The notes: generated from the letters alone by a model not told the origin. A stretch of 64,000 nt of DNA from Chloroflexota bacterium (GCA_034432775.1 DAOUBH010000022.1:27170-91169); one strand, 5' to 3'. Numbered from the stretch's first letter, positions 3,617 through 23,607 are shown. Numbers and translations are program-made.

Positions 3617-3934
3617 AAACAGATAAAGCGCCAGCCATGCACCCCCTGTCGACCCAGCCCTTCCTGCTTACCCGTGCTGGCTGACTCCGACCAGGTTTCC
3701 CCACGGCGCCCAGGATTGCCCGCTTACCGTTGCTTCCTTCCGGACCTGGCGGGGTTCACGGGATCCTGCCGCGTAGGACCCAGCCTTCAACGTCGCCCGG
3801 CACGGGCAGTCCAACAAGAACCGGCCTCGAGGGGGACTTCGACCCCGCTACAGCGGATTGCGGGTACAGGGCACCGCTAGCTCCCCGTCTAGCATGGCTG
3901 GCATATCCATTATAACTGGACCCGCGGTCATCGG

Positions 3935-4837: not shown

Positions 4838-6175
4838 TCAGATCCCAGTTAAGGTCGCGAGGTCCTCAGGACGATCTACATCGACCAGTATGCCAGGATC
4901 GTTCACAGTTATCTCAACCACGGCCTCGGGCCACCGTGCTGCCACCTGCCGCCCACCAACATCCCCCTTTAAAGCAGAGAGCTCGGCGAAGAACTTCCGC
5001 GGAAAGAGCACGGGGTTACCCCGGCTGCCCTCAAACACCGGCACAATAATGCTCTCCGGATGATCCCTGTGGCTCCTCAACAGAAGGTCCACAGTGCTAG
5101 ACTGCAAAAGAGGCTGGTCTCCCAAGCAGAAAAGGACCGCTTCAACACCTGGATCGAGGGCGCCTAAACCTGCGCGCACGCTGCTGGCCAGCCCCTCGGC
5201 CCAATCACTATTCTCGACGAAGGTTATCGGTAGCCCCTGCAGCACCCGCCTGAGCTGATCGGCCTGGTACCCTCCCACTACAACGACTTCGCCCACCTCG
5301 GTGTTCAAGACGATTTTAACGCTCCTGCGAGCCATGGGCACCCCGTCTATCTCAGCCAGCTGCTTGGCACCCCCGAAACGTCTCCCCTGCCCCGCTGCCA
5401 GCAGCACAGCCGCCTTTCGACGGTCCACGGCTTCAATGCTGTCCCATGCTACAAGCAGCACCCCGAAAACCCCTGGCCGCGACAGCACCCAATGGGCGAA
5501 GTCCAGAGCCACCCGTCTATCCACAAGATTCACCTTGTTCAGCACCACCCATACGCGGGCCTGGCGTGGGACCCCCTTAAGACCGCCTTCGGGGTGGGTG
5601 ACAGCCAGCGCCACGATCTCCGGGGTGAGCTCATGGCCCTCCTTGAGACCCGTAAGGGACACGAAGGCTTCAAGGCGATGGACGACCTCGTCGGAAAGAG
5701 GCATGTTCAGAGCATCGGCGCCAACCAATACCAGTACCTTGTGGGACTTGGAAGGTATCACAGGCTCGTGCTCTGCTGGCACCTTGAGCGGCCTCCTGCG
5801 CGCCCCATCGCCCTCTACAACGGTGAGGTCCACGCCCGCTAAGCCCGCCAAAGTCTCGACTTCTTCGGGCTTTAGCCCATGAAGCTTATCATCCCTGATG
5901 CGGCTACCGACCACGGTGACATGGCCGTGACGTTGCAACCCGTCAAGTACCGTACCTTGGACGTCTTTGCTCTCATCAGCAATCACAAGAAAGGGACTTT
6001 GTGACTTGCCGGGCATCGAAATATTGGTGGTGGTAGTGGTCAATACCTTCCACCCCCTGGACGCCGCCTCGGCTGCCAGCCGAAACATCACTGTGGTCTT
6101 GCCACCCCCGCCCACCAACGTCACAATGTCGCCCCGGCGTACGTCCAGGGCCTCCATCAGAGTGGCGTAGTCCAT
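4838..6175 (-). CDS. fusion: YqeC-like selenium-dependent molybdenum hydroxylase accessory domain + MocA-like molybdenum cofactor cytidylyltransferase domain
   Basis: N-terminal half has VTLVGGGGKTT P-loop and VLTTTTT; C-terminal half has LLAAGQGRRFGGAK, NSDWAEGLASSVRAG, CLGDQPLL, SRGNPVLFP, VDVDRPEDL, matching the MocA/MobA nucleotidyltransferase fold. Confidence 0.65.
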   Translation of the reverse strand: MDYATLMEALDVRRGDIVTLVGGGGKTTVMFRLAAEAASRGWKVLTTTTTNISMPGKSQSPFLVIADESKDVQGTVLDGLQRHGHVTVVGSRIRDDKLHGLKPEEVETLAGLAGVDLTVVEGDGARRRPLKVPAEHEPVIPSKSHKVLVLVGADALNMPLSDEVVHRLEAFVSLTGLKEGHELTPEIVALAVTHPEGGLKGVPRQARVWVVLNKVNLVDRRVALDFAHWVLSRPGVFGVLLVAWDSIEAVDRRKAAVLLAAGQGRRFGGAKQLAEIDGVPMARRSVKIVLNTEVGEVVVVGGYQADQLRRVLQGLPITFVENSDWAEGLASSVRAGLGALDPGVEAVLFCLGDQPLLQSSTVDLLLRSHRDHPESIIVPVFEGSRGNPVLFPRKFFAELSALKGDVGGRQVAARWPEAVVEITVNDPGILVDVDRPEDLATLTGI

Positions 6176-11612: not shown

Positions 11613-12298
11613 TCTTCGACCTCTCCTCGAAAACCCAGCCGTGCATTATACCCCACACTCACGAGAAGCCCGCCCAGCTGCCCGTGCGAATTTGGCCAGA
11701 ACCTTTGTGCAGCCGAGGCGAGCATACCTCCGGTAATACCTAGCAGAGCAAGAAGGGACAGCATTGAATCTTCCTGCTTGGGGAGATAAAACTAAACGCA
11801 AGGCTCAGTGTATGCCCCAGCCCACGTTCAAGTTCGGCCGTGCAGGCTAGAGCGACTAGCATTTTTTTCTCCAGTGGGTCCCACCCTCGGGCCTCATCGG
11901 CTGCGAGAATACCTTAAAAAATTCTAGGACGTGGCCTATCTTCCCCCAGCTAACAACTATCGTATCGGTATGTAGTTCCGCAGAATCTGAGCTCTTGGCG
12001 CGCGTACGCCCGTGTACGATTGAAGGGCAGTGCCTACTGCCAGACAAGTCAAGCACTGTCAGGGACCTGCACAGTTAACACGAGGGCAGGAAGACGAAAA
12101 CCGATGGACGTATAGGGTTCGCGGTACGGGCAGCCTCCGAGCTTCGAATGATACCTTTAACCCGTTATATACATTGGTATATTGCCGTTAAATTCTGACG
12201 CAATCTTAAAAGATGCTACGCATAATGAAACAAGTAGGCTTTTGCACTTTCAACTCTGGTACAAAGACTTATCATGCCACAGGCGGGAGTGGCGGAGC

Positions 12299-15061
12299 AT
12301 GTCCGTGGTGTTTAAACCGGAAGTGAAGTGGGTACCAAGTTACTGTTATCAATGCAACGCGGGCGGACCAGATCTATTGCGCGTTAAGGTAGTAGACGGG
12401 GTAGCAGTAGGACTAGAGGGCAACCTTGATTTTGCTAGTGTCCATCCAGGCGGGGCAAAAGTGTGCGTCAAAGCATATGGGCTAATTCAGAAACATTATA
12501 ACCCAAATCGCGTCAAGGCCCCGCTGAAACGCACGAATCCTAAAAAGGGTCTGGACGAGGACCCTGGTTTCGTAGAGATCACATGGGATGAAGCCATCGA
12601 ACTGTGGGCCCAGAAACTCCTTGAGGTCAGGAGTCGAGGCATAGTAGACGAGAACGGTTATCCACGTGTCGCCTTCGCTGAGGGGTCTGATGGTGTTTGC
12701 CCTTCGTATTATGGCACCCTGCCAGTGATTTTCGGTGGCCTCTCACAGGCTCTAGGGCTCCCTCCCGGGATCTGGGGACCTACCGAATTTACCATGGCGC
12801 AAGGGGGCGGCGTGAAGTGTTACCACACCGAGCATCTGCTTGGGGAGCTGTGGCACAAAGGCTTCACGTGTGCTCAAGATACCCCACTCTGTGATTACAT
12901 CATTGCCATTGGCAGAAGTGACGACACGTCCTTCGGCGTCACGGGAGCGAAGCGCCAGGCTGAGGCCAGAGCCAGGGGATGGAAAAGGGTCCAAGTAGAG
13001 CCACACCTATCGGTAACCGGAGCTACATCTGACCGATGGGTCCCCATAAGGCCCGAGACCGATCATGCATTTCTTTTCGCTATGATCCATGTTGTCCTTC
13101 ACGAAATGAATTGGGCTGAAGTGTGTGACATCCACTTCTTGAAAACGATGACCAATAGCTCCTATCTGGTTGCGCCCGATGGCTACTTTCTGCGAGACCC
13201 GGTGTCCGAAAAGCCGCTAGTGTGGGACACCGTGGACCGAGCCGCCAAACCCTTCGATAGGGACGTGAAGGATCCCGCACTTGAAGGTGAATACGAGGTC
13301 GCCGGGATCACCCTTGGCCCAGACTCCAAAAGAAGCAGATTCGACCGCGTTTCGGTCAAGCCAGCCTTTCAACTGCTCATAGAACACGTGAAGACGTACA
13401 CGCCGGAGTGGGCATCAGAGATCTGCGATGTTCCTCCGCAAACCATTAGGGAACTGACGCATGAGTTCATTAGCCATGCAAGAGTAGGAGCAACCATCAC
13501 CGTCGACGGCATTGAAATGCCCTATAGGCCAGTGTTCATTGCCCTCGGCAAGACCCAGAATAACGGATGGGGCTCCATGCAGTGCGTCTGGGCAGCCCAC
13601 GTTTTGCAAATGCTCGTCGGCTCGTTGGAAGTACCTGGGGGACACTTAGGGACCCGGGTTCTGTTCTCAGGCCCGCCCAGAAGAACAGCTGATGGATTTC
13701 TCGAGTATCCCTTCAACCCGACAGACAAGGAGAACTGGCGGTTTCCTCCTGGCCGTAGGGATGGTGTGCCATCCCTCTGTCCACTGACAGGACCTTTTCT
13801 GGGCCCCATGCATCTGGGGTGGAAATGGACCGTGGACCCACCTCCACACTGGCCGGCTCCGAGCGTACCCGACATATTGATCACCTACAAGGTGAACCCG
13901 GTCATCTCGCAGTTCGATACACCAACTATCGTGGAGGTACTTCGCAGGATCCCCTTCCATGTGGCGTTTGCCTATACCCTGGACGAAACAGCTTGGTTCG
14001 CGGATCTCGTGCTACCAGAAGATGGAGACCTGGAAGCACTGCAGGTTTTCCCCATCGGCGCTACAACCTTTATGGAGAACTTTTGGGAGCATGTCGGACT
14101 CGCCATAAAGCAGCCTGCAGTACCACGGGCGAATAACACGCGGAACATTACCGACATAGCGACCGACTTGGCGGAAAAACTAGGAATGCTGGCTGCCTAC
14201 AACGAGGCCCTAAACCACGGCGCCTTCCTTGGATTTGTCTTGAAGGATACCCCGCACGAATTACAGCCAGACAAGAAATACACAGCGGAAGAGATCTATG
14301 ACCGAATCTGTAAGGTAGCTACTTACAACCTCAGTAGGGGATCGGAGGAATTCGGATTGGAGTGGTTTAAGGAAAAGGGAGCCTTCTTCGTTCCTTTCCC
14401 CAAGGTCGGTCCAGGGATAAGCCTGGGCCCGATTTACATGCGTCCATGGTACCTTTACCCCTACATGCGCCAGTCTGGCATCCGCTTCGAGCTCCCCTAC
14501 CAGGAAAGGTTGAAGAGGATCGGTGAAGAGCTTCAAGCACGCATCAGCGAGGCCAAGATAGACTGGTGGCAGGCACAGGCACACGAATACCAGGCATTGC
14601 CGAAATGGCACAGTACCAGCACAATCATCGACGATGTTATTGCCAAACGTTACGGGAAAAACCCAAATGACTACCCATTTTGGCTTCTTGCTACCCGAAG
14701 CATGCAATATGCTTGGGGATCCAACATAGCAGTTCCGCAGATGCATGAAGTAGCCGAGCGCGTGTTGGGTCACACGTGGGTTCAGATGAGCACCCAAGCG
14801 GGCAGGCTTCTCGGAATTAAGGATGGGGACGAAGTGTGGATTGAGTCTGCATATGGCAAGGCGCGAGGGAGAGTTAAGCTGAGGGAGGGAATCCGAGCAG
14901 ATGTTGTGTTGACAACGCAGATGTATGGCCACGTGAAAACCCCGTTCGCTAAGGATCTCAGACTCCCAAACCTCAATCAGATAGCTCCAGCGCTAGTGGA
15001 GTTAACCGACGAAACTGGGGGTTCTAAGGATCATGTCAAAGTGAAGGTATATAAGCCCTAA
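12299..15061 (+). CDS. molybdopterin oxidoreductase catalytic subunit (DMSO reductase/MopB superfamily), no Tat signal
   Basis: ~920 aa; N-terminal C-x2-C-x3-G-x33-C (YCYQCNAGG...KVCVKAYG) at the position of the MopB FS0 cluster motif; no RRxFLK motif; ATG 12299 after GGGAG; long ORF from 12182 is likely upstream extension. Confidence 0.8.
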   Translation: MSVVFKPEVKWVPSYCYQCNAGGPDLLRVKVVDGVAVGLEGNLDFASVHPGGAKVCVKAYGLIQKHYNPNRVKAPLKRTNPKKGLDEDPGFVEITWDEAIELWAQKLLEVRSRGIVDENGYPRVAFAEGSDGVCPSYYGTLPVIFGGLSQALGLPPGIWGPTEFTMAQGGGVKCYHTEHLLGELWHKGFTCAQDTPLCDYIIAIGRSDDTSFGVTGAKRQAEARARGWKRVQVEPHLSVTGATSDRWVPIRPETDHAFLFAMIHVVLHEMNWAEVCDIHFLKTMTNSSYLVAPDGYFLRDPVSEKPLVWDTVDRAAKPFDRDVKDPALEGEYEVAGITLGPDSKRSRFDRVSVKPAFQLLIEHVKTYTPEWASEICDVPPQTIRELTHEFISHARVGATITVDGIEMPYRPVFIALGKTQNNGWGSMQCVWAAHVLQMLVGSLEVPGGHLGTRVLFSGPPRRTADGFLEYPFNPTDKENWRFPPGRRDGVPSLCPLTGPFLGPMHLGWKWTVDPPPHWPAPSVPDILITYKVNPVISQFDTPTIVEVLRRIPFHVAFAYTLDETAWFADLVLPEDGDLEALQVFPIGATTFMENFWEHVGLAIKQPAVPRANNTRNITDIATDLAEKLGMLAAYNEALNHGAFLGFVLKDTPHELQPDKKYTAEEIYDRICKVATYNLSRGSEEFGLEWFKEKGAFFVPFPKVGPGISLGPIYMRPWYLYPYMRQSGIRFELPYQERLKRIGEELQARISEAKIDWWQAQAHEYQALPKWHSTSTIIDDVIAKRYGKNPNDYPFWLLATRSMQYAWGSNIAVPQMHEVAERVLGHTWVQMSTQAGRLLGIKDGDEVWIESAYGKARGRVKLREGIRADVVLTTQMYGHVKTPFAKDLRLPNLNQIAPALVELTDETGGSKDHVKVKVYKP

Positions 15062-15082
15062 GACAAGGGGAGGGTACTTGCC

Positions 15083-15733
15083 GTGGCACGATGGGGAATG
15101 GCCATCGACCTCAGGAAATGCAACGGATGTCAGACGTGCACCGTAGCATGCAAGATCGAGAATTTCACCCCAAAGGGTTTGCTTTGGGGACAAGTTTACG
15201 ATTATGAGACCGGGCAGTATCCCACAGTCCAACGCCGCTTCCTTCCCGCCCTTTGTATGCACTGTGAAAGTCCGCCATGCAGAGACGTGTGCCCGACAGG
15301 CGCCACCAAAAAGAGAGAAGACGGAATCGTTTATGTCGATTATCAGAGGTGTACCGGTTGCCAGGCATGTGCCTTAGCCTGTCCGTACGAAGCGCGCTTC
15401 CTCTACACGGAACGGGATGGGTATTTTGACCGACGCAGAACCCCATACGAACAGTTCCCATACGAGTGGAGAGCACCATCGCAACGGTTTACGAACGGAA
15501 CCATGACGAAATGTACCTTCTGTATGCACCGGATAGATCAACACCCAAATAAGCGTCCAGGTATAGATCCGGAGGCCACACCTGCCTGCGTCGTTGCCTG
15601 TATCACCGGAGCACGGATCTTCGGTGATCTGGACGACTCAGAGAGCGAGATCAACAAGGTAATCCGGGAACGACGCGGCTTCACACTGCTGCCTGAGCTC
15701 GGGACTGGGCCTTCCGTGTATTACTTGCCCTAA
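15083..15733 (+). CDS. 4Fe-4S ferredoxin-type electron-transfer subunit of molybdopterin oxidoreductase
   Basis: Four Cys clusters: CNGCQTCTVACK, CMHCESPPCRDVCP, CTGCQACALACP, CTFCMH...CVVAC; GTG start 9 nt after GGAGG. Confidence 0.85.
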   Translation: MARWGMAIDLRKCNGCQTCTVACKIENFTPKGLLWGQVYDYETGQYPTVQRRFLPALCMHCESPPCRDVCPTGATKKREDGIVYVDYQRCTGCQACALACPYEARFLYTERDGYFDRRRTPYEQFPYEWRAPSQRFTNGTMTKCTFCMHRIDQHPNKRPGIDPEATPACVVACITGARIFGDLDDSESEINKVIRERRGFTLLPELGTGPSVYYLP

Positions 15734-15753
15734 AAGCGAAGCTCTAATAGGGT

Positions 15754-16605
15754 GTGTGGGAGGTAAAGGCAGTGATTTCCATCCATGGTCAGAGAAACTG
15801 GGGTTTCACGACAGCTCTGGCAATGTTCCTCGAGGGGAGCTGTGGCGCCACTACGGTAAGCGGAATACTTCTAGGCAATCTACCCATGGTAATACTTGGG
15901 GTAGCCCTCGGAATGGCAGCCGGCTTGATCCTTTTACTTGAGCTCGGAAATCCGAAAAATGCAATCTGGTTACTTGCAGGCATACGTCATGCTTGGATTT
16001 CGCGAGGTACTCTCCTACTACTGTTAGTCATTGTTTTTGGCCTTGCATACGCTCTCGTCGGCCTGCCAACTGTGGGCGCCCCGCCCGTCTTAAGCGTAGT
16101 CGCGGGTGTCACCGCTGGAATCGCAGGCCTCTTGCTGACACTGTACCCAGGGTTCCTGCTCGCTTCGTTCAAGCCCATACCGTTGTGGCATTCGGCCTTG
16201 TCGCCCATTCTCTCTTTCGGCATTAGCGCCCTAGGCGGTTTCGGCGTAACTTTGGTCATGTCCCCACTGGTAACTGTAAATGCAGTACAGATGACGATTC
16301 CTGCAGTGTCAGGTGCAGTGGTCTTTCAAGCCGTGGCGTGGTGGGCATTTATCGACACAGCGCTAAAAGGTAGCGTTACAGAATCCCACGGAGCTAGGGT
16401 GCTATTGGGGCTACCTGTCTTCTCAGCTGGGGCCATCGCGGTTGGCTTGGCATTACCTGGAGTAATCATGGTTTTAGCGTGGGCCGCAGGCGTTACATCA
16501 CTTCCGTTGTATGTCGTAGCAGGGGTATGTCTGCTTGCTGGAAGTCTAAGCGCTAGGTACGCCCTATTAAGGGCTGGTGTGCGATTGCGGTGGCAGCCGG
16601 CCTAG
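15754..16605 (+). CDS. integral membrane anchor subunit (NrfD/PsrC/DmsC-like) of molybdopterin oxidoreductase
   Basis: 283-aa protein with ~8 hydrophobic helices directly downstream of the catalytic and FeS subunits. Confidence 0.6.
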   Translation: MWEVKAVISIHGQRNWGFTTALAMFLEGSCGATTVSGILLGNLPMVILGVALGMAAGLILLLELGNPKNAIWLLAGIRHAWISRGTLLLLLVIVFGLAYALVGLPTVGAPPVLSVVAGVTAGIAGLLLTLYPGFLLASFKPIPLWHSALSPILSFGISALGGFGVTLVMSPLVTVNAVQMTIPAVSGAVVFQAVAWWAFIDTALKGSVTESHGARVLLGLPVFSAGAIAVGLALPGVIMVLAWAAGVTSLPLYVVAGVCLLAGSLSARYALLRAGVRLRWQPA

Positions 16606-17299
16606 CCTGGAACCGAAGGCAGCCTCAGCCTCCATTCTGCCGCGGGACACGCGAATGAGGCCAGGACTGTCCCGGGAGTTATATGGAAGCTAACGGAGGA
16701 TATCCGAGCAAATCCCCAGATCCATCAAACTAATAGATCATTAACCGGTGAGGCAAAGGGGTTCTTGCATCAGCCGGGCGCTCAGAATGGGGAGCCAGCA
16801 CCCTACTTGGCTCTGGTGCGGCTACTGATTGGTCTGAGGGGGTCTGACAGGTAGAGTATACCCTCTTCTACCCCCATCACATATCCTTCTTGCTGCTCAA
16901 TGGCCGATCTCCCCATAAACCAAGTACCGTAATCATGCATCACATCGAGACCATACCAGCCACGCCACGAGGTATCGCGATAGAGCCAAAGCCTAGGTAG
17001 CCGTCGATACACATCGGGGGAGGACTTTCCACGGGTTCTAATACGGACTCCGGTTGCTAAGGGTGAAACGGCTCACGGAGGGAGAGCCTCAGGCCAAGGC
17101 CATCCACACCAGTAGTGCAGATAGGGGTGCAGTTCACCAACCGTCGCTCAGCTCCTTCAAAGCAAGTTAAGGCGTCTCCATCGTCCTTGGCCCCGACATT
17201 GGGGCTCGAACTGAAAGGGATTGACCTCCATGATACAATCTACTGTGGAGTTCGACCCATACCTTTTCGCTAAAAACCCCAAGTCTAGGTAGATGGACT

Positions 17300-18082
17300 G
17301 TGTTGACCCACGCCTTTATCCAGATCCGCGGCCTCACTAAGGTCTATTTGTCAGACCACGGACAAGTGCTCGCCCTCGACGGCATAGACCTGGACATAGC
17401 AGAGAAGGAGTTCGCTTCCATCCTGGGACCCAGCGGCTGCGGCAAGAGCACCCTCATTATGCTCATAGCAGGCCTCATACGCCCCACATCGGGAAGCATA
17501 ACCATAAACGGCAGACAGATCGATGGTCCATACACTGATCTGGGGATAGTCTTTCAGCGGGACGTTCTCCTGGACTGGCGAAATGTACTGGACAACGTAT
17601 TGCTCCAGATCGAGATCCGCAGGCTGAAACGATCCGATTATGAGAAAGTTGCCCTTCAGCTCCTCGACAGGGTCGGTCTGGGCGAATTCACTACAGCCTA
17701 TCCCAGGGCCCTGTCGGGAGGCATGCGCCAACGGGTAGCCATCTGCAGGGCCCTTGTCCACGACCCGCCTCTCCTGCTTATGGATGAGCCCTTTGGAGCC
17801 CTCGACGCCCTCACTAGAGACCAGATGTCCCTAGATCTTATGCGCATCTGGGAACAGACCCATAAGACGGTACTCTTTGTGACCCACAGCATACCCGAGG
17901 CTATCTTCCTTTCCGACAGGATTATCGTCATGTCGCCGCGTCCAGGCCGCATCGTAGAAGACATCCGCATCGAGCTGCCCAAGCCGCGACGCTTGGCCGT
18001 GCGCGATACCCAGGACTTCGCCGACTATGATCGCCACATCCGGGAGATCTTCATGGCCCAGGGTGTGCTGGTCGAAGGATAG
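17300..18082 (+). CDS. ABC transporter ATP-binding protein (NitT/TauT family)
   Basis: Walker A GPSGCGKST, signature LSGGMRQR, Walker B LLLMDEPFGALD, H-loop VTHS. Confidence 0.85.
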   Translation: MLTHAFIQIRGLTKVYLSDHGQVLALDGIDLDIAEKEFASILGPSGCGKSTLIMLIAGLIRPTSGSITINGRQIDGPYTDLGIVFQRDVLLDWRNVLDNVLLQIEIRRLKRSDYEKVALQLLDRVGLGEFTTAYPRALSGGMRQRVAICRALVHDPPLLLMDEPFGALDALTRDQMSLDLMRIWEQTHKTVLFVTHSIPEAIFLSDRIIVMSPRPGRIVEDIRIELPKPRRLAVRDTQDFADYDRHIREIFMAQGVLVEG

Positions 18083-18102
18083 ACGTTTGGCAGGAGGAAT
18101 GT

Positions 18103-18930
18103 ATGGCTGAAGGTGTCACAGCTGTTAAGGTCGAGCAGAAACCACGGCCTCGCGCAAACCTTAAGGACTACTACTATCCCGTGGCAGCTGCGATCGCGTT
18201 CCTTCTCTTGTGGGAGGGAATTGTCCACCTGCTGAATATCAAGCCCTACCTGCTGCCAGCACCGTCAAACATCCTTCAAAAGCTGACCGGCCAGTGGGGA
18301 ACCATCTGGGACTACACGCTCGTCACCGGATTCGAGGTGTTGCTAGGCTTCCTGCTGAGCATAATCGTGGGCATACCGTTGGGCATGGTCATATTCTATG
18401 TAAAGGCCCTGGAGAGGGTTATCTATCCCTTTCTAGTGGCATCTCAGACTATCCCCAAGGTAGCCATCGCACCACTTTTGGTGATCTGGTTCGGTTTCGG
18501 TCTTACGCCCAAGGTGATCGTGGCCTTCTTGATAGCCTTCTTCCCCATAGTGGTCGATACTGTGGTAGGGCTGAAAAGCACCCCTCCAGAGATGATCTAT
18601 CTAGTAAGATCCATGGGAGCCAACAGGCTCCAGACCTTCCTGAAGATCAGTTTGCCCAATGCCCTCCCCAATATATTCGGCGGCTTGAAGGTCGCCATCA
18701 CTTTGGCGGTAGTGGGTGCTGTGGTGGGAGAGTTCATAGGTGCCGATAGGGGCCTCGGTTACCTCCTTGTGGTCGCCAACGGCTACCTCGATACCCCCCT
18801 GGTCTTCGCTGGGATCATTGTCCTCAGCCTCATGGGCATATTTCTCTTCTTCGTCATTGAGATCATCGAACGCCTCCTAATGCCTTGGAGATCCGAAGAG
18901 CAGACGGAGATAGTCAGGGGGACCATGTGA
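18103..18930 (+). CDS. ABC transporter permease (NitT/TauT family)
   Basis: Polytopic membrane protein; EAA-like region RSMGANRLQTFLKISLPNALP. Confidence 0.85.
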   Translation: MAEGVTAVKVEQKPRPRANLKDYYYPVAAAIAFLLLWEGIVHLLNIKPYLLPAPSNILQKLTGQWGTIWDYTLVTGFEVLLGFLLSIIVGIPLGMVIFYVKALERVIYPFLVASQTIPKVAIAPLLVIWFGFGLTPKVIVAFLIAFFPIVVDTVVGLKSTPPEMIYLVRSMGANRLQTFLKISLPNALPNIFGGLKVAITLAVVGAVVGEFIGADRGLGYLLVVANGYLDTPLVFAGIIVLSLMGIFLFFVIEIIERLLMPWRSEEQTEIVRGTM

Positions 18931-20321
18931 GGCAGAAACACCAGCAGGAAGCAGATCTGCTCGTCCTGGGGGAATGGATCCTCCTGTCAGCAAACGATGC
19001 CCTACAACGGGGAGCCATAGCGGTACGGGACGGCCTTATAGTCGATGTTGGTCCCCAACGAGATGTTATGGAACGGTACCGCGCCAAGAGGGTCATCGGC
19101 GGCGCCGATAGGATCGTTGCTCCCGGGCTAATAAATACCCATACCCATCTCTTTCAGACCTTCCTCCGCGGATTGGGCGAAGGGCTGCCATTGCGCACCT
19201 GGGTCGAGCGAGTAACTACCCCTGCTGCCCTTGCCATGACCTGGGAAGACGCCTACCTGTCGGCTGCCCTGGGCCTCATCGAGGCCCTTCACTCCGGAAC
19301 TACGGCTGTCTTCGAGTATGGGTACGCCTTTCCAGATCCATCCCTGCACGAGGCCACCTTGAAAGCTTTCCTCGATGTGGGAGTGCGTGGCTGGTTGGGG
19401 ATAGGTGTCAACGATGCTGGGATTGAGTTCGGCGTCCATCCGGCATTCATTCAGACCGTCGATGAGGCTCTGAAGAAGGTGGACGATTTGCGTGTCGCGA
19501 TGGCCAGGCTTGGCCAGATGCCGGTCCAGTTAGCCCTCGTCTCGGGAAGCATCAGAGGCCTATCTTCCCAGGGCGTCAGGGCCTTCCATGGGTACGCAGA
19601 GGCCAACGGTCTACTCTATTCCCTCCACCTCAAAGAGATACCCCAGGACGACGAAACAGCCCTGCTGCGTTTCGGTACCAGGGCAGTGCCGTGGCTCGCT
19701 GATTGCGGGGTCCTCAAGCCTAATCTCCTCGCTGTCCACTGCGTGTGGCTCAACCAGGAGGACATAGACCTCCTGGCTGAGGGCCGCTCCTCTGTGTCCC
19801 ACAACCCCGTCAGCAACATGTATCTAGGTGCGGGGATAGCTCCAGTGGCAGAGTTGCTGCAACGTGGGATCGCAGTAGGCTTAGGCACCGACGGGCCAGC
19901 AAGCAACAACAGCATGGACATGCTCCAGACGCTGAAGTTCTCCATACTGGGACAGCGAGCCCGAAAGGCCTCGCCCGATATCATAACCTCGAGGGACGGC
20001 TTCCGCATGGCTACGGAGGACGCTGCCCGGGCCTTGGGGGTCGAGGGTCTTCTTGGACGCATCGCTCCTGGATATGTGGCCGATATTGTTGTTTTCCGCA
20101 CCGATACCTTCCAGGGAGTCCCTTGCCATGACCCCTACGCTACGTTAGCCTTCTCAGCCGGTTGTGGCTCCGTAGAGACCGTGATGGTCGGAGGGCGGAT
20201 CGTTCTAGAGGAGGGTCTGGTCAAGACCCTCGATGAAGCCGACATCGTGGCTAGGGCATCGACAGCAGCCAAGGATCTGGTCCAGCGAGCAGGCATACCC
20301 GCAGGAGTGTTCGTGAGGTGA
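18927..20321 (+). CDS. metal-dependent amidohydrolase (cytosine/guanine deaminase or chlorohydrolase-like)
   Basis: APGLINTHTHL metal-binding HxH, later HCVW and GLGTDGPASNN; GTG start overlaps permease stop (GTGA). Confidence 0.75.
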   Translation: MRQKHQQEADLLVLGEWILLSANDALQRGAIAVRDGLIVDVGPQRDVMERYRAKRVIGGADRIVAPGLINTHTHLFQTFLRGLGEGLPLRTWVERVTTPAALAMTWEDAYLSAALGLIEALHSGTTAVFEYGYAFPDPSLHEATLKAFLDVGVRGWLGIGVNDAGIEFGVHPAFIQTVDEALKKVDDLRVAMARLGQMPVQLALVSGSIRGLSSQGVRAFHGYAEANGLLYSLHLKEIPQDDETALLRFGTRAVPWLADCGVLKPNLLAVHCVWLNQEDIDLLAEGRSSVSHNPVSNMYLGAGIAPVAELLQRGIAVGLGTDGPASNNSMDMLQTLKFSILGQRARKASPDIITSRDGFRMATEDAARALGVEGLLGRIAPGYVADIVVFRTDTFQGVPCHDPYATLAFSAGCGSVETVMVGGRIVLEEGLVKTLDEADIVARASTAAKDLVQRAGIPAGVFVR

Positions 20322-21345
20322 TCTCGGGCATCACCATGAATCCCGATGCCGATCCCCAGGTGTTGAAAGCCATAGCCCGACAGGTGGAGGAGCTCGGATT
20401 CTCCTACTGCTACGTTGCCGACCAAGGCCTGAGTCGCGACGTATATGTGACACTGTCCAACCTGGCCGCCTCCACCACAAGCCTACGGTTGGGCCCTGGA
20501 ATCACTCACCCCTATGTGCGGCACCCGGCCGCCACAGCCGTGGCCATAGCGACCCTAGATGAGCTATCCCACCACAGGGCCTTCCTGGGCATAGGAGCCG
20601 GTGGCACCCGCGCCCTCGCCCCCTCAACATCGACAGAAGAGAGCCACTCCGCGCCTGCACCGAGGCAGTGGAAATTGCGCGACGGCTCTGGACCGGCCAA
20701 CCCGTAGACTTTTCCGGCCGCTACTTTCAGCTTAGAGGCGCCCGCATCAACTTTCCTTGCCGGCACAATATAGAGGTACACTGGGCTGCCCGGGGTCCCA
20801 AGATGCTACGCCTGGGCGGTGAACTGGCTGATGTAGTTTTCCTCCATGGAAACCCCCACAGCGAGATAGCTGAAGCTGTGCGCCATGTTCGGGCGGGAGC
20901 CCTTGAGGCCCAACGGAAAGTGAGGATTCACCTGGCACTGCCAATAATCTATGATCAGGCCTCCTTCGAGAGCGGACGCTTAAGGACAGCTTGCAGGTTG
21001 GTCGATCTCACTGAGGATGCCAGGAGGAGGCTGGACATATCCACACAGCTCCATTCCAGGATCAGGGAGCTGGTGCTATCGTCGCAGCTCGAGTCCGCTG
21101 CACAGCTTGTGGAGCCTGAACTGGTCAGGCAATTTGTAGTCGACGCCACAGACCCGGAGTCGCTTCGCGATCTGGCCAGGACCATAGCTTCTCTCAACTT
21201 GGACGGCTTTATAGTGGAGATCAGTAACCCGTACCTGGCTGCAACTATACTTCCCGTGGCCCATCAGGTCATCGCCAAGACCATGCAGCTGCTCAAGGAC
21301 CAAACTACTGGTAGTCCACAAACCTATCAGGGAGGTGTCCCATGA
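20318..21345 (+). pseudogene. F420-dependent LLM-class (luciferase-like/Mer-like) oxidoreductase, reading frame broken by apparent -1 frameshift in a C5 run (20619-20623)
   Basis: N-terminal frame ...LGPGITHPYVRHPAATAVAIATLDELSHHRAFLGIGAGG (Mer-like); C-terminal part continues in another frame as PLNIDRREPLRACTEAVEIARRLWTGQPVDFSG...; one extra C would restore GAGGTRALAPLNIDRREPL. Confidence 0.6.
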
Positions 21346-22424
21346 GGCGTTTCAGAGGCTTACGGTGGTATCAGATCCTCACACTACTCGTGCTAGGGCT
21401 CTTTCTAGTTGCCTGCAGCCAGCCAACACCGGCACCCCCGGCCGGAGCCCAGGCAAGCCCAGCGCCCAGCCCAGCACAGCCTACCCCGACAGCCAAGCCG
21501 GCACCCGACAAGGTCACCCTCAGGCTCTCATGGCGGTGGAAGGCCGAGTTTGCACCCCTGGTCCTTGCTGACGACAAAGGCTTCTTCAAGGAAGAGAACA
21601 TTGAAGTGCAGCTCCTCGAAGGCAAGGGGTCTGGTGATGTAGTCCCCCTCATAGCCAACAAGACCGACACCTTCGGCTACCTTAATCTCACCACGGTGGC
21701 GATAAGCACAGCTAAAGGTCTACCCGTAAAGGTTGTGGCCGGTCTTATGGCTAAGAACCCTTCAGCTCTGGCCTTCTTCGCTGAGAAGAACATAAAGCAA
21801 CCCAAAGACCTAGAGGGCAAATCCATTGCCCTGACACCGGGTGAGGCCTTCGCCGTCATTTGGCCAGCTTTCGCTAAGAAATGGGATATCGATACCTCCA
21901 AAGTCACCACCGTCAACCTCGACCCCAGCGTTAAGAATCAGGCGTTCCTGGAAGGACGCATCGATGTACTTCCTGTCTATGTGAACAACGAGCTGCCTCA
22001 GATCCGCTACCAGGCCAAGAAGCCCATCGACATCCTCACGCCAGCCGATTGGGGCTTCAACACCATAGCCAACGGGATCATCACCCACGTGGACACCATC
22101 AAAGAAAAACCCGACCTGGTACGCAGGTTCGTCCGCGCCGTAGCTAAGGGTTACAAGTACGCAATCGACCATCCAGACGAGGCAGTAGCCGCCGTGTCCA
22201 AGCGGTCAGATGCCCTTGCCAGCCAGCCGAAGGAGGTGCTCCTCGAACAGGTCACAATGACCTTGGACTTTATGTACAGTCCCAACAACAAGGGCAAGCC
22301 CATCGGATGGATGGCCGATGAAGACTGGACCGCTACCATCGACCAACTCTTCCAGACCGGCGCCATCGATAAAAAGCTTCCCAACGACACCTTCTACACG
22401 AACGATTTCGTACCCAAGGAGTGA
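21342..22424 (+). CDS. ABC transporter substrate-binding lipoprotein (NMT1/THI5/SsuA-like)
   Basis: Signal peptide with lipobox LFLVAC-S, Pro/Ala-rich linker, periplasmic binding protein body; start overlaps LLM stop. Confidence 0.8.
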   Translation: MRRFRGLRWYQILTLLVLGLFLVACSQPTPAPPAGAQASPAPSPAQPTPTAKPAPDKVTLRLSWRWKAEFAPLVLADDKGFFKEENIEVQLLEGKGSGDVVPLIANKTDTFGYLNLTTVAISTAKGLPVKVVAGLMAKNPSALAFFAEKNIKQPKDLEGKSIALTPGEAFAVIWPAFAKKWDIDTSKVTTVNLDPSVKNQAFLEGRIDVLPVYVNNELPQIRYQAKKPIDILTPADWGFNTIANGIITHVDTIKEKPDLVRRFVRAVAKGYKYAIDHPDEAVAAVSKRSDALASQPKEVLLEQVTMTLDFMYSPNNKGKPIGWMADEDWTATIDQLFQTGAIDKKLPNDTFYTNDFVPKE

Positions 22425-22439
22425 ACTAACTAGAGGCCA

Positions 22440-22826
22440 GTGGAAAAGAGGTTCGTTAATCCAGCCGAACTGCATGCTCCCTTGGGAGCTGGCTGCCACG
22501 TAGCTGTGGCCGGCAGGACCATCTACGTGGCAGCCCAGCTTCCCTTGGACAAAGACGGTAACCTCGTCGGGCCCGGCGACCCTGTGGCTCAGGCCGAGCA
22601 GGTGTTCCGAAATCTGCAAGCAGCCCTTCGGGCCGTGGATGCCAACCTGGGGGATGTCGTCAAACTCACAACATATCTGAGAGACCTGGAGCATCGCCCC
22701 TTGGTCATGGAAGTACGTAATAGGTTCTTCGGTAGCCACCGCGCCCCGAGCACCCTGGCCCTGGTCGTAGACCTCCCGGTGCCGGGGGCTCTCCTCCAGA
22801 TCGACGCTATAGCCGTGAAGGACTGA
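22440..22826 (+). CDS. RidA/YjgF/Rid-family protein (paralog 1)
   Basis: 128 aa; RidA core (...IYVAAQLPLDKDGNLVGPGDPVAQAEQVFRNL...LLQIDAIAV). Confidence 0.85.
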   Translation: MEKRFVNPAELHAPLGAGCHVAVAGRTIYVAAQLPLDKDGNLVGPGDPVAQAEQVFRNLQAALRAVDANLGDVVKLTTYLRDLEHRPLVMEVRNRFFGSHRAPSTLALVVDLPVPGALLQIDAIAVKD

Positions 22827-22828
22827 TC

Positions 22829-23227
22829 ATGTGGGCCCGTAAAACTATTTCGCCCCCACAGAACCCGAGGCCCACCAGTTACTACTCCCATGGAGTCCTT
22901 GCAGGTCCGTGCCTCTATACTGCTGGCCAGACCTCCAGGGACCCCCACGGAAACCTTGTGGGGTCGGACAGCATAACTCTTCAGGCTGCCCAAGCTCTCC
23001 GCAACCTGAACAACGTACTGAACGAAGCAGGCATGACACCTTCCGACATCGTGTTCCTTCGTGTGTTCCTCAGGCGAGCCGAAGACTTTGAGGCTGTTTC
23101 GCAGGCCCTGAGGGCCTTCTTGGGCAGCCACACCCCTGCTATCACCGTAGCCATCGTAGAAGGGTTAGCATACCCCGAATACCTTCTGGAGATAGAGGCC
23201 ATAGCCGCAGCAGGGGACCCGCCATGA
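22829..23227 (+). CDS. RidA/YjgF/Rid-family protein (paralog 2)
   Basis: 132 aa; ...LYTAGQTSRDPHGNLVGSDSITLQAAQALRNL...LLEIEAIA. Confidence 0.85.
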   Translation: MWARKTISPPQNPRPTSYYSHGVLAGPCLYTAGQTSRDPHGNLVGSDSITLQAAQALRNLNNVLNEAGMTPSDIVFLRVFLRRAEDFEAVSQALRAFLGSHTPAITVAIVEGLAYPEYLLEIEAIAAAGDPP

Positions 23228-23607
23228 AGCAGCGGATCTCAGTACCGTCCATACATCGACCGACCACCTATTACTCTCATGCCATCGTAGTAGACGGGTG
23301 GGTGTACACGGCCGGCCAGGCTCCGCACCGTCCCGACGGAAGTGTCTGGGAGCCATCGGACCCTGAGGGCCAAATTCGCCAGGTATGGGAGAACATGCGC
23401 GAAGTCCTCGAGGCCGCTGGCTCGAATCCTGAGAATATCCTTCGCCTCGTCGTGCTGCTCAAGGACAGGGACCTCGTGCCTCTCTTCTGGAAAGTCTCCA
23501 GCGATTACTTGGGGACTTGCCGCCCGGCTACATCGCTGGCCGTGGTGAAGGGTATGGCCGATACCCGCTATCTAATAGAGATGGAGGCCATTGCGCTGTG
23601 CCGCTGA
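23224..23607 (+). CDS. RidA/YjgF/Rid-family protein (paralog 3)
   Basis: 127 aa; ...VYTAGQAPHRPDGSVWEPSDPEGQIRQVWENM...LIEMEAIA; ATGA overlap with paralog 2. Confidence 0.85.
   Translation: MKQRISVPSIHRPTTYYSHAIVVDGWVYTAGQAPHRPDGSVWEPSDPEGQIRQVWENMREVLEAAGSNPENILRLVVLLKDRDLVPLFWKVSSDYLGTCRPATSLAVVKGMADTRYLIEMEAIALCR

Follow-up and report, generated by a model that had tools for sequence, protein, structure and literature searches.

We analyzed a stretch of 64,000 nucleotides (nt) of Chloroflexota DNA (GCA_034432775.1, DAOUBH010000022.1:27170-91169; hereafter the window), which carries at positions 12299–16605 a three-gene operon for a membrane-bound, interior-facing molybdenum enzyme. Judged by its sequence, the operon is a member of the known PadBCD family (phenylacetyl-CoA:acceptor oxidoreductase) and not a new kind of enzyme. 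On balance, we favor the view that it encodes a cytoplasm-facing, quinone-reducing dehydrogenase of this family, which acts on an organic, probably CoA-activated, substrate. An initial annotation of the window had called the enzyme SoeABC-like. As a description of the architecture this stands, but as a family assignment it does not: the catalytic subunit is 47% identical to a Thauera PadB orthologue, and its proteobacterial relatives are found in the pad gene context. The closest characterized system is PadBCD, not SoeABC. The three subunits (A, B and C; sizes in amino acids, aa) and two motifs of subunit A are located as follows.

12299..15061, plus strand: A, catalytic subunit, ATG start, 920 aa, 103.2 kDa
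12344..12466, plus strand: FS0 motif of A, C16-x2-C19-x3-G23-x32-C56 (three Cys), then P24-D25
12818..12820, plus strand: codon of Cys174 of A, candidate Mo ligand, motif GVKC(Y/V)H(T/S)EH
15083..15733, plus strand: B, electron-transfer subunit, GTG start, 216 aa, 24.7 kDa
15754..16605, plus strand: C, membrane anchor, GTG start, 283 aa, 29.0 kDa

Operon structure and catalytic subunit

The existence of the operon is confirmed: the three open reading frames (ORFs) have the sizes initially given (about 920, 216 and 283 aa) and are indeed tightly arranged, with gaps of 21 nt between A and B and 20 nt between B and C. Subunit A is a MopB protein, predicted to bind Mo- or W-bis-molybdopterin guanine dinucleotide (bis-MGD), and contains the Pfam domains Molybdopterin (PF00384) and Molydop_binding (PF01568). 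It scored far under the cut-offs of all the NCBIfam equivalogs to which it was compared, i.e. PhsA (136 bits for a cut-off of 694), ArrA (123 for 1600), TtrA (57 for 1750), QrcB (127 for 440), DmsA, NarG and others. Its AlphaFold model (predicted local distance difference test, pLDDT, 88.5; predicted template modeling score, pTM, 0.91) most closely resembled the folds of ArrA (6cz7, the best match in the PDB), PcrA, EbdA and PsrA (2vpw).

A twin-arginine translocation (Tat) signal on A is ruled out from any usable start. The ATG of A lies 9 nt downstream from a GGGAG sequence and coincides with the starts of the homologues. The longest possible N-terminal extension, which begins at a TTG codon (position 12182) and is preceded by an in-frame TAA (12158–12160), adds 39 aa, in which we found neither an S/T-R-R-x-F-L-K motif nor a hydrophobic region. 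The absence of a twin-arginine motif, initially noted for the annotated start, thus extends to any longer N-terminus. By contrast, the idea that this absence sets the enzyme apart had to be given up, as it is not rare among related MopB enzymes.

Two other assignments of A were rejected. Membership of the periplasmic Psr/Phs/Ttr/Arr reductases conflicts with the lack of a Tat signal and with scores below the curated equivalog cut-offs. A cofactor-less MopB homologue of the QrcB/ActB type conflicts with the invariance of C16, C19, C56 and C174 and with the QrcB score, which is under the cut-off.

FS0 motif, candidate molybdenum ligand and ferredoxin subunit

In an alignment of 38 sequences, the three cysteines of the FS0 motif (C16, C19 and C56) were invariant, and P24 and D25 were at least 90% conserved. 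The initial annotation had rightly recognized a Gly in place of the third Cys, but the spacing before the last Cys is x32 and not x33, and the motif, described as atypical, turned out to be the family norm: 164 of 176 family members, the Thauera protein among them, read CxxC-x3/4-PD and lack the third FS0 Cys, whereas CxxCxC occurs in seven members and the canonical CxxCxxxC in three (P0013-15). More distant relatives (31–37% identity) display the canonical four-Cys FS0, with or without a Tat signal. As derived from these alignments, FS0 with three Cys characterizes the PadB family as a whole, as does the C.H(S/T)EH motif. The cluster would be of the [3Fe-4S] type or, if Asp25 or solvent serves as a ligand, of the [4Fe-4S] type.

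Cys174 is the only invariant Cys outside FS0 in the same 38 sequences. The alignment that the initial annotation had proposed as a way to the Mo ligand gave a divided answer: against the ArrA profile, Cys174 matches the Cys of the ArrA loop (…SSVCAEAH…), which we take to be the ArrA Mo ligand, but against PsrA it is offset by 5 residues from the ligand Cys. Because the placement is supported by the ArrA alignment and not by that with PsrA, we infer only that Cys174 is the probable Mo ligand of A.

Subunit B is a four-cluster ferredoxin of the PadC/PsrB type, in line with the initial description: its 16 Cys fall into four groups (13/16/19/23, 58/61/66/70, 90/93/96/100 and 144/147/169/173). It matches Fer4_11 and related Pfam families, as well as the NCBIfam models TtrB, DsrO and ArrB, these last under their cut-offs, and no signal peptide was found on it. 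Between the last two Cys pairs, all the aligned non-Tat B subunits, that of the window included, carry an insert of 10–12 aa (…PGIDPEATP), which is missing from both B subunits of the Tat-type operons described below.

Placement in the PadB family

Subunit A has more than 3000 homologues. The closest ones (60–78% identity) come from metagenome-assembled genomes (MAGs) of Chloroflexota and Anaerolineae, and a very large group, about 50% identical to A, bears the JGI label phenylacetyl-CoA:acceptor oxidoreductase (PadB). As a proxy for PadB we used P0135, a 50%-identity representative that heads a 90% cluster from Thauera; over its full length (909 residues), it shares 47% identity with A of the window. 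A tblastn search of plasmids, by comparison, matched only proteins with generic names, none above 29% identity. The genes of the P0135 locus are, in order, XdhC, MobA-like, FdhD, A (917 aa), B (215 aa), C (301 aa) and PaaX, and the Thauera C subunit, like that of the window, has no Pfam match. The subunits of the Thauera enzyme reportedly have masses of 93, 27 and 26 kDa, which the masses of the window subunits (103, 24.7 and 29 kDa) approach.

We then placed A among its relatives by gene context and phylogeny. A scan of species-representative genomes, in which partner genes and B–C fusions were detected with hidden Markov models (HMMs) and tblastn, returned at least 80 loci, mostly proteobacterial and 43–50% identical to A. 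According to tblastn, a PaaK-type ligase gene stands beside the three genes in 35 of the 80 loci listed, and a hotdog thioesterase gene in 42 of the 80. In the loci that were checked with Pfam (Paramagnetospirillum, Rhodocyclaceae, Sulfitobacter and Ramlibacter), the three genes are accompanied by a PaaK-type ligase, POR subunits, Pyr_redox_2 and an FlK-like hotdog thioesterase. The same layout is that of the pad cluster (PMC4453571), and PadBCD itself has been purified from Thauera (Rhee & Fuchs 1999, as cited in PMC4453571). In a neighbor-joining tree (100 bootstraps, rooted on four-Cys outgroups), both the no-Tat three-Cys family and, within the tree, the proteobacterial pad-context clade were recovered with a bootstrap of 100.

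In the Thauera pad locus (L089:1310-9333), XdhC-like, MobA-like and FdhD genes lie directly upstream of padB, and PaaX lies downstream. FdhD was also found in nine scanned loci and in L090 and L091, which hints that the Mo centre of the family may need FdhD-type sulfuration.

Fold and membrane orientation of the anchor

No Pfam or NCBIfam model, PF03916 included, matched C even at E<=10, although its relatives P0122-P0133 do match PF03916. An HMM that we built from PadD-like subunits recognized it clearly (92 bits, E 2.5e-24 at Z=1e6). The AlphaFold model of C (pLDDT 86.4) displays eight long helices, as expected from the initial description of an anchor of 283 aa with about eight helices, and its best folds are PsrC (2vpw_C, TMt 0.74) and ActC. 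C is predicted to be a highly divergent NrfD/PsrC-fold anchor of the PadD type and, from the charge distribution given below, to have both termini inside, i.e. to be inverted.

Since a missing Tat signal is negative evidence only, we looked for positive evidence as to the orientation of the enzyme. For that purpose, two anchors from Tat-type operons were aligned with C of the window and 18 non-Tat anchors, the transmembrane boundaries being mapped from a Tat-type protein, and the Lys and Arg residues (K+R) of the termini and loops were counted. The window anchor carries nine K+R on its termini and even loops and none on its odd loops. The two Tat-type anchors have 12 K+R on loops 1, 3, 5 and 7 versus 3–5 on the termini and loops 2, 4 and 6; by contrast, all 19 non-Tat anchors are reversed, with 7–19 on the termini and even loops versus 0–3 on the odd ones. 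By the positive-inside rule, these opposite biases indicate that the Tat and non-Tat anchors are inserted in opposite senses. The termini of PsrC are on the P (positive) side of the membrane in its structure (PMC8076601), with which the pattern of the Tat-type anchors is consistent. For SoeC, as for the non-Tat anchors here, an inverted NrfD is expected (PMC8076601).

A second line of evidence is provided by gene fusions. B and C form a single polypeptide of about 520–580 aa in 17 of the 72 homologous loci among the matches listed (L009-L012, L014, L019, L020, L025, L031, L043, L045, L061, L068, L077, L078, L082 and L083), which places the start of C on the same side of the membrane as a signal-less ferredoxin. 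Taken together, the lack of a Tat signal at any start, the mirrored K+R distribution in C and the B–C fusions make it well supported, at the level of sequence, that the enzyme faces the cytoplasm, as had been proposed from the missing signal.

The anchor has diverged far beyond its partners. Compared with the operon in L003, A is 73% identical, B 65% and C only 25%, while the C subunits of L003 and L004 are 56% identical to each other; the window anchor is 24–28% identical to every other C subunit compared. A collection of 5.8 billion proteins contained only 13 relatives of C; the two that exceed 35% identity are encoded in the operons that hold the closest homologues of A. The sole explanation that we can suggest is that C may have undergone relaxed or lineage-specific evolution.

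The Chloroflexota sub-clade

In the tree, A of the window belongs to a seven-member clade (bootstrap 100) with L086, P0003, P0004, P0006, P0005 and P0011, in which the pairs A of the window + L086 and P0005 + P0011 also have a bootstrap of 100. The closest homologue of A (78% identity; L086:3356-10047, also L087) is a protein of 1036 aa with a fused N-terminal SCP2 lipid-carrier domain; genes for a GAF-HisKA_3/LuxR two-component pair lie before its gene, and one for an aldehyde:ferredoxin oxidoreductase (AOR) comes after it.

Two close relatives, P0005 (70% identity) and P0011 (63%), carry Tat signals on A. The Tat-type operons (L001:7230-13353 and L002:2341-7594) encode a TorD/NarJ-type chaperone and a longer, canonical NrfD protein (313–326 aa, 156 bits on Pfam) with the opposite K/R bias; in L001, TatC is adjacent. 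As everything around the Tat pair lacks a Tat signal, the most parsimonious interpretation of this distance tree is that the pair went back to the periplasm secondarily: its lineage would have gained a signal and a chaperone, lost the B insert and exchanged its inverted anchor for a conventional NrfD. Membrane orientation thus appears to have switched within this single seven-member clade (bootstrap 100).

The neighbors of the clade genes point to organic-acid or acyl-CoA chemistry, not to phenylacetate specifically. AOR genes lie near relatives of A in L005, L086 and L087; the L005 locus (55% identity) also encodes a thiamine pyrophosphate (TPP) decarboxylase-type enzyme and a ferredoxin. The neighbors are BcrAD/HGD-D and SDR in L004, acyl-CoA dehydrogenases in L092 and L093, and FdhD with PAS/GAF regulators in L090 and L091; small ferredoxins also occur among them. 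Upstream of one non-Tat relative (65% identity, L092:3797-8718) lie genes for a small ferredoxin and a TorD/NarJ-like chaperone, and its B gene is not followed by one for NrfD; this enzyme may be a soluble variant.

Proposed function and alternatives

What the sequence shows is the family placement, the subunit composition, the missing export signal and the inverted charge bias of C; by analogy with PadBCD and PsrABC, we infer beyond this the type of substrate, the Mo ligand, quinone as the acceptor and the direction in which electrons flow. The cytoplasmic subunit A, with its Mo-bis-MGD centre, Cys174 as probable ligand and the three-Cys FS0, would oxidize an organic substrate and draw the oxygen from water; its target would most likely be an activated methylene group in a compound of the acyl-CoA or arylacetyl-CoA type. 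The four [4Fe-4S] clusters of B would then relay the electrons to C, which would hold the quinone site. With its NrfD fold upside-down relative to PsrC, C would let A and B dock on the cytoplasmic face. Since substrate oxidation and quinone reduction would both take place on the N (negative) side, the step should be electroneutral.

Several observations weigh against a PadBCD-type dehydrogenase acting on a CoA ester. A of the window falls outside the pad-context clade (bootstrap 100). Of the 241 positions with at least 95% conservation in the pad-context clade, 53 hold a different residue in A, in many cases through substitutions fixed in its own clade. Given this position in the tree, phenylacetyl-CoA is only one candidate substrate. 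Two of the seven clade members are Tat-exported, and a CoA-ester substrate is hard to square with this if the substrate is conserved. On either side, about 690 nt of non-coding DNA isolate the operon. When the whole 64-kb window was searched by tblastn (E<=1e-8, at least half of the query) with the PaaK ligase, POR alpha and gamma, Pyr_redox_2, FlK-like thioesterase, PaaX, AOR, TPP decarboxylase, FdhD, XdhC, MobA-like, SCP2 and chaperone sequences, no match was found; a subset of these queries gave none at E<=1e-3 either. Finally, no enzyme of the sub-clade has been characterized.

A narrower version of the proposal is that the enzyme is a functional PadBCD orthologue, which converts phenylacetyl-CoA to phenylglyoxylate in the anaerobic degradation of phenylalanine or phenylacetate, the rest of the pathway being encoded elsewhere in the genome. 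The full-length identity to Thauera PadB and the shared FS0 and Cys-ligand motifs speak for it, as does the L005 locus, whose TPP decarboxylase-type enzyme, AOR and ferredoxin recall the types of enzymes (TPP decarboxylase and AOR) that feed phenylacetate in the Aromatoleum pathway. But neither PaaK nor POR-type nor thioesterase genes are found in the 64 kb, the window enzyme lies outside the pad-context clade with the differences counted above, and in the MopB family an identity of 45–50% often spans different substrates, so that we regard strict orthology as unlikely. A hydrophobic, membrane-permeant, non-CoA substrate (alkyl-aromatic, isoprenoid or sterol-like), reachable from either side of the membrane by an anaerobic hydroxylase or dehydrogenase, would agree with a clade that mixes cytoplasmic, Tat-exported and SCP2-fused forms, and the AOR encoded downstream in L086 and L087 would fit a methyl-to-aldehyde-to-acid sequence. 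Acyl-CoA dehydrogenase and BcrAD/HGD-D neighbors nevertheless indicate CoA chemistry, the Tat forms may have changed substrate, and SCP2 domains also bind acyl-CoAs; such a substrate is quite improbable for the window enzyme. For the lineage as a whole, in which proteins 63–78% identical are cytoplasmic, Tat-periplasmic or SCP2-fused, it is a doubtful but conceivable extrapolation that these forms act on a hydrophobic, membrane-permeant substrate rather than on phenylacetyl-CoA, by a new kind of water-dependent oxidation without oxygen.

The two remaining alternatives invoke sulfur chemistry. A SoeABC-type sulfite:quinone oxidoreductase, oxidizing cytoplasmic sulfite to sulfate, would have an identical predicted architecture (A and B on the N side, an inverted NrfD-like C, no Tat signal), and a NitT/TauT (sulfonate/taurine-type) ABC transporter cluster begins about 700 nt downstream. 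That cluster, however, lies across a long non-coding gap and also encodes amidohydrolase and Rid-family proteins, and none of the ORFs annotated at 1.1–23.6 kb is a sulfur-oxidation gene (dsr, sHdr, sox, tusA/dsrE). Moreover, the named close relatives are PadB or generic oxidoreductases and never SoeA (the two families being set apart here by names and context), and the proteobacterial relatives sit in aromatic-acid clusters, not in sulfur-oxidation clusters. We therefore consider a SoeABC-type function very unlikely. Even less credible, indeed barely so, is a cytoplasm-facing reductase fed by quinol, e.g. a sulfur/polysulfide reductase as first proposed for Aquifex 'Sre': PhsA, PsrA and ArrA are the nearest matches of the enzyme in NCBIfam and the PDB, but all the scores are far below the cut-offs, that of PhsA included, and the characterized member of the family is a dehydrogenase.

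The operon belongs to a family of more than 3000 homologues that is automatically annotated and barely studied. The charge distribution and the fusions constitute sequence-level evidence, beyond the missing Tat signal, for an upside-down NrfD anchor in PadBCD-type enzymes; the NrfD review does not mention phenylacetyl-CoA oxidoreductase (PMC8076601). 'PadB' labels outside Proteobacteria, including that of the window enzyme, should not be taken as a sign of phenylacetate degradation. The orientation switches within the sub-clade, if true, would make it feasible to trace how topology evolves among complex iron-sulfur molybdoenzymes, and the several forms of the enzyme, if so read correctly, would offer a natural system to study how a respiratory molybdoenzyme flips its membrane orientation.

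Flanking DNA and other genes of the window

The operon is bordered by the following two stretches.

11613..12298: upstream non-coding stretch, 686 nt, GC 0.52
16606..17299: downstream non-coding stretch, 694 nt, between the operon and an unrelated ABC-transporter cluster

In the upstream stretch, the ORF listing contained no ORF of at least 80 aa, no sigma-70-like promoter was matched, and an Rfam scan (E<=1) gave one chance-level match and no riboswitch such as that for the molybdenum cofactor (Moco). In the downstream stretch, we found no Rfam element and no tblastn match to the AOR sequences of the relatives. The operon has a GC content of 0.54, and its GC content at third codon positions is 0.53–0.59 versus 0.63–0.70 in the neighboring genes, which is compatible with a possible horizontal acquisition but proves nothing; only short, chance-level repeats flank the operon, and no mobile-element genes were seen around it.

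The gene at 4838-6175 (minus strand) encodes YqeC, a protein of selenium-cofactor biosynthesis (171 bits), fused to a MocA-like molybdenum cofactor cytidylyltransferase (155 bits for a cut-off of 186; MobA, 43 bits), the only nucleoside triphosphate (NTP)-transferase in the window. The initial annotation had suggested looking for bis-MGD biosynthesis genes such as mobA; as the MocA-like score exceeds that for MobA, the fusion is no evidence for bis-MGD synthesis. The fusion points instead to an enzyme of the molybdopterin cytosine dinucleotide (MCD) type, i.e. of the xanthine dehydrogenase family, elsewhere in the genome.

The cluster at 17300-23607 (plus strand), 694 nt from the Mo operon, comprises NitT/TauT-type ABC genes (ATPase, permease and SsuA-family binding protein), a TRZ/ATZ-family amidohydrolase gene and three tandem genes of the Rid family (RidA/RutC-like). 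Two overlapping ORFs at 20318-20707 and 20668-21345 (plus strand) match the N-terminal (profile positions 2-100) and the C-terminal part (119-305), respectively, of one family of LLM-class F420-dependent oxidoreductases and probably represent a frameshifted gene or a sequencing error. The bacterial large signal recognition particle (SRP) RNA (Rfam RF01854, 195 bits) is encoded at 3635-3897 (minus strand).

Comparison with known systems

The system to which the operon is closest is PadBCD of Thauera aromatica and Aromatoleum (KEGG K18361-K18363; EC 1.17.5.1). Both have the same A-B-C gene order and the same subunit sizes, no Tat signal, the three-Cys FS0 (CxxC…GPD), the GVKC.H(S/T)EH motif, the DPEATP insert in B, and an NrfD-like C that is too divergent for Pfam and has its K/R residues on the termini and even loops. 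The window enzyme differs by its position in a Chloroflexota-type sub-clade, by its changes at conserved positions (53/241) and by its anchor, 24–28% identical to the others; the 64-kb window also yielded no tblastn match to padJ/paaK, padEFGHI-type, thioesterase, PaaX, FdhD or XdhC genes.

SoeABC (Allochromatium vinosum, Aquifex aeolicus and Ruegeria pomeroyi; SoeA KEGG K21307, Alvin_2491, aq_1234) has the same three-subunit build: a subunit with Mo-bis-pyranopterin guanine dinucleotide (bis-PGD) and FS0, a four-cluster ferredoxin and an NrfD-like anchor with eight transmembrane helices, A and B being proposed to lie on the N side (PMC8076601, PMC6335251). It differs in that the family context of the window enzyme, as judged by names and neighboring genes, is aromatic and organic-acid metabolism.

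PsrABC, PhsABC and ArrAB(C) include the best relatives of solved structure, both for A (6cz7, 2vpw) and for C (2vpw_C), and form the same three-module electron wire. In these enzymes a Tat signal is present, FS0 contains four Cys and the termini of the anchor lie on the P side; the window enzyme lacks the signal, has three Cys in FS0 and shows the inverted charge bias. Within the NrfD/PsrC anchor family, C matches the PsrC and ActC folds, has eight transmembrane helices and is encoded beside a four-cluster ferredoxin.

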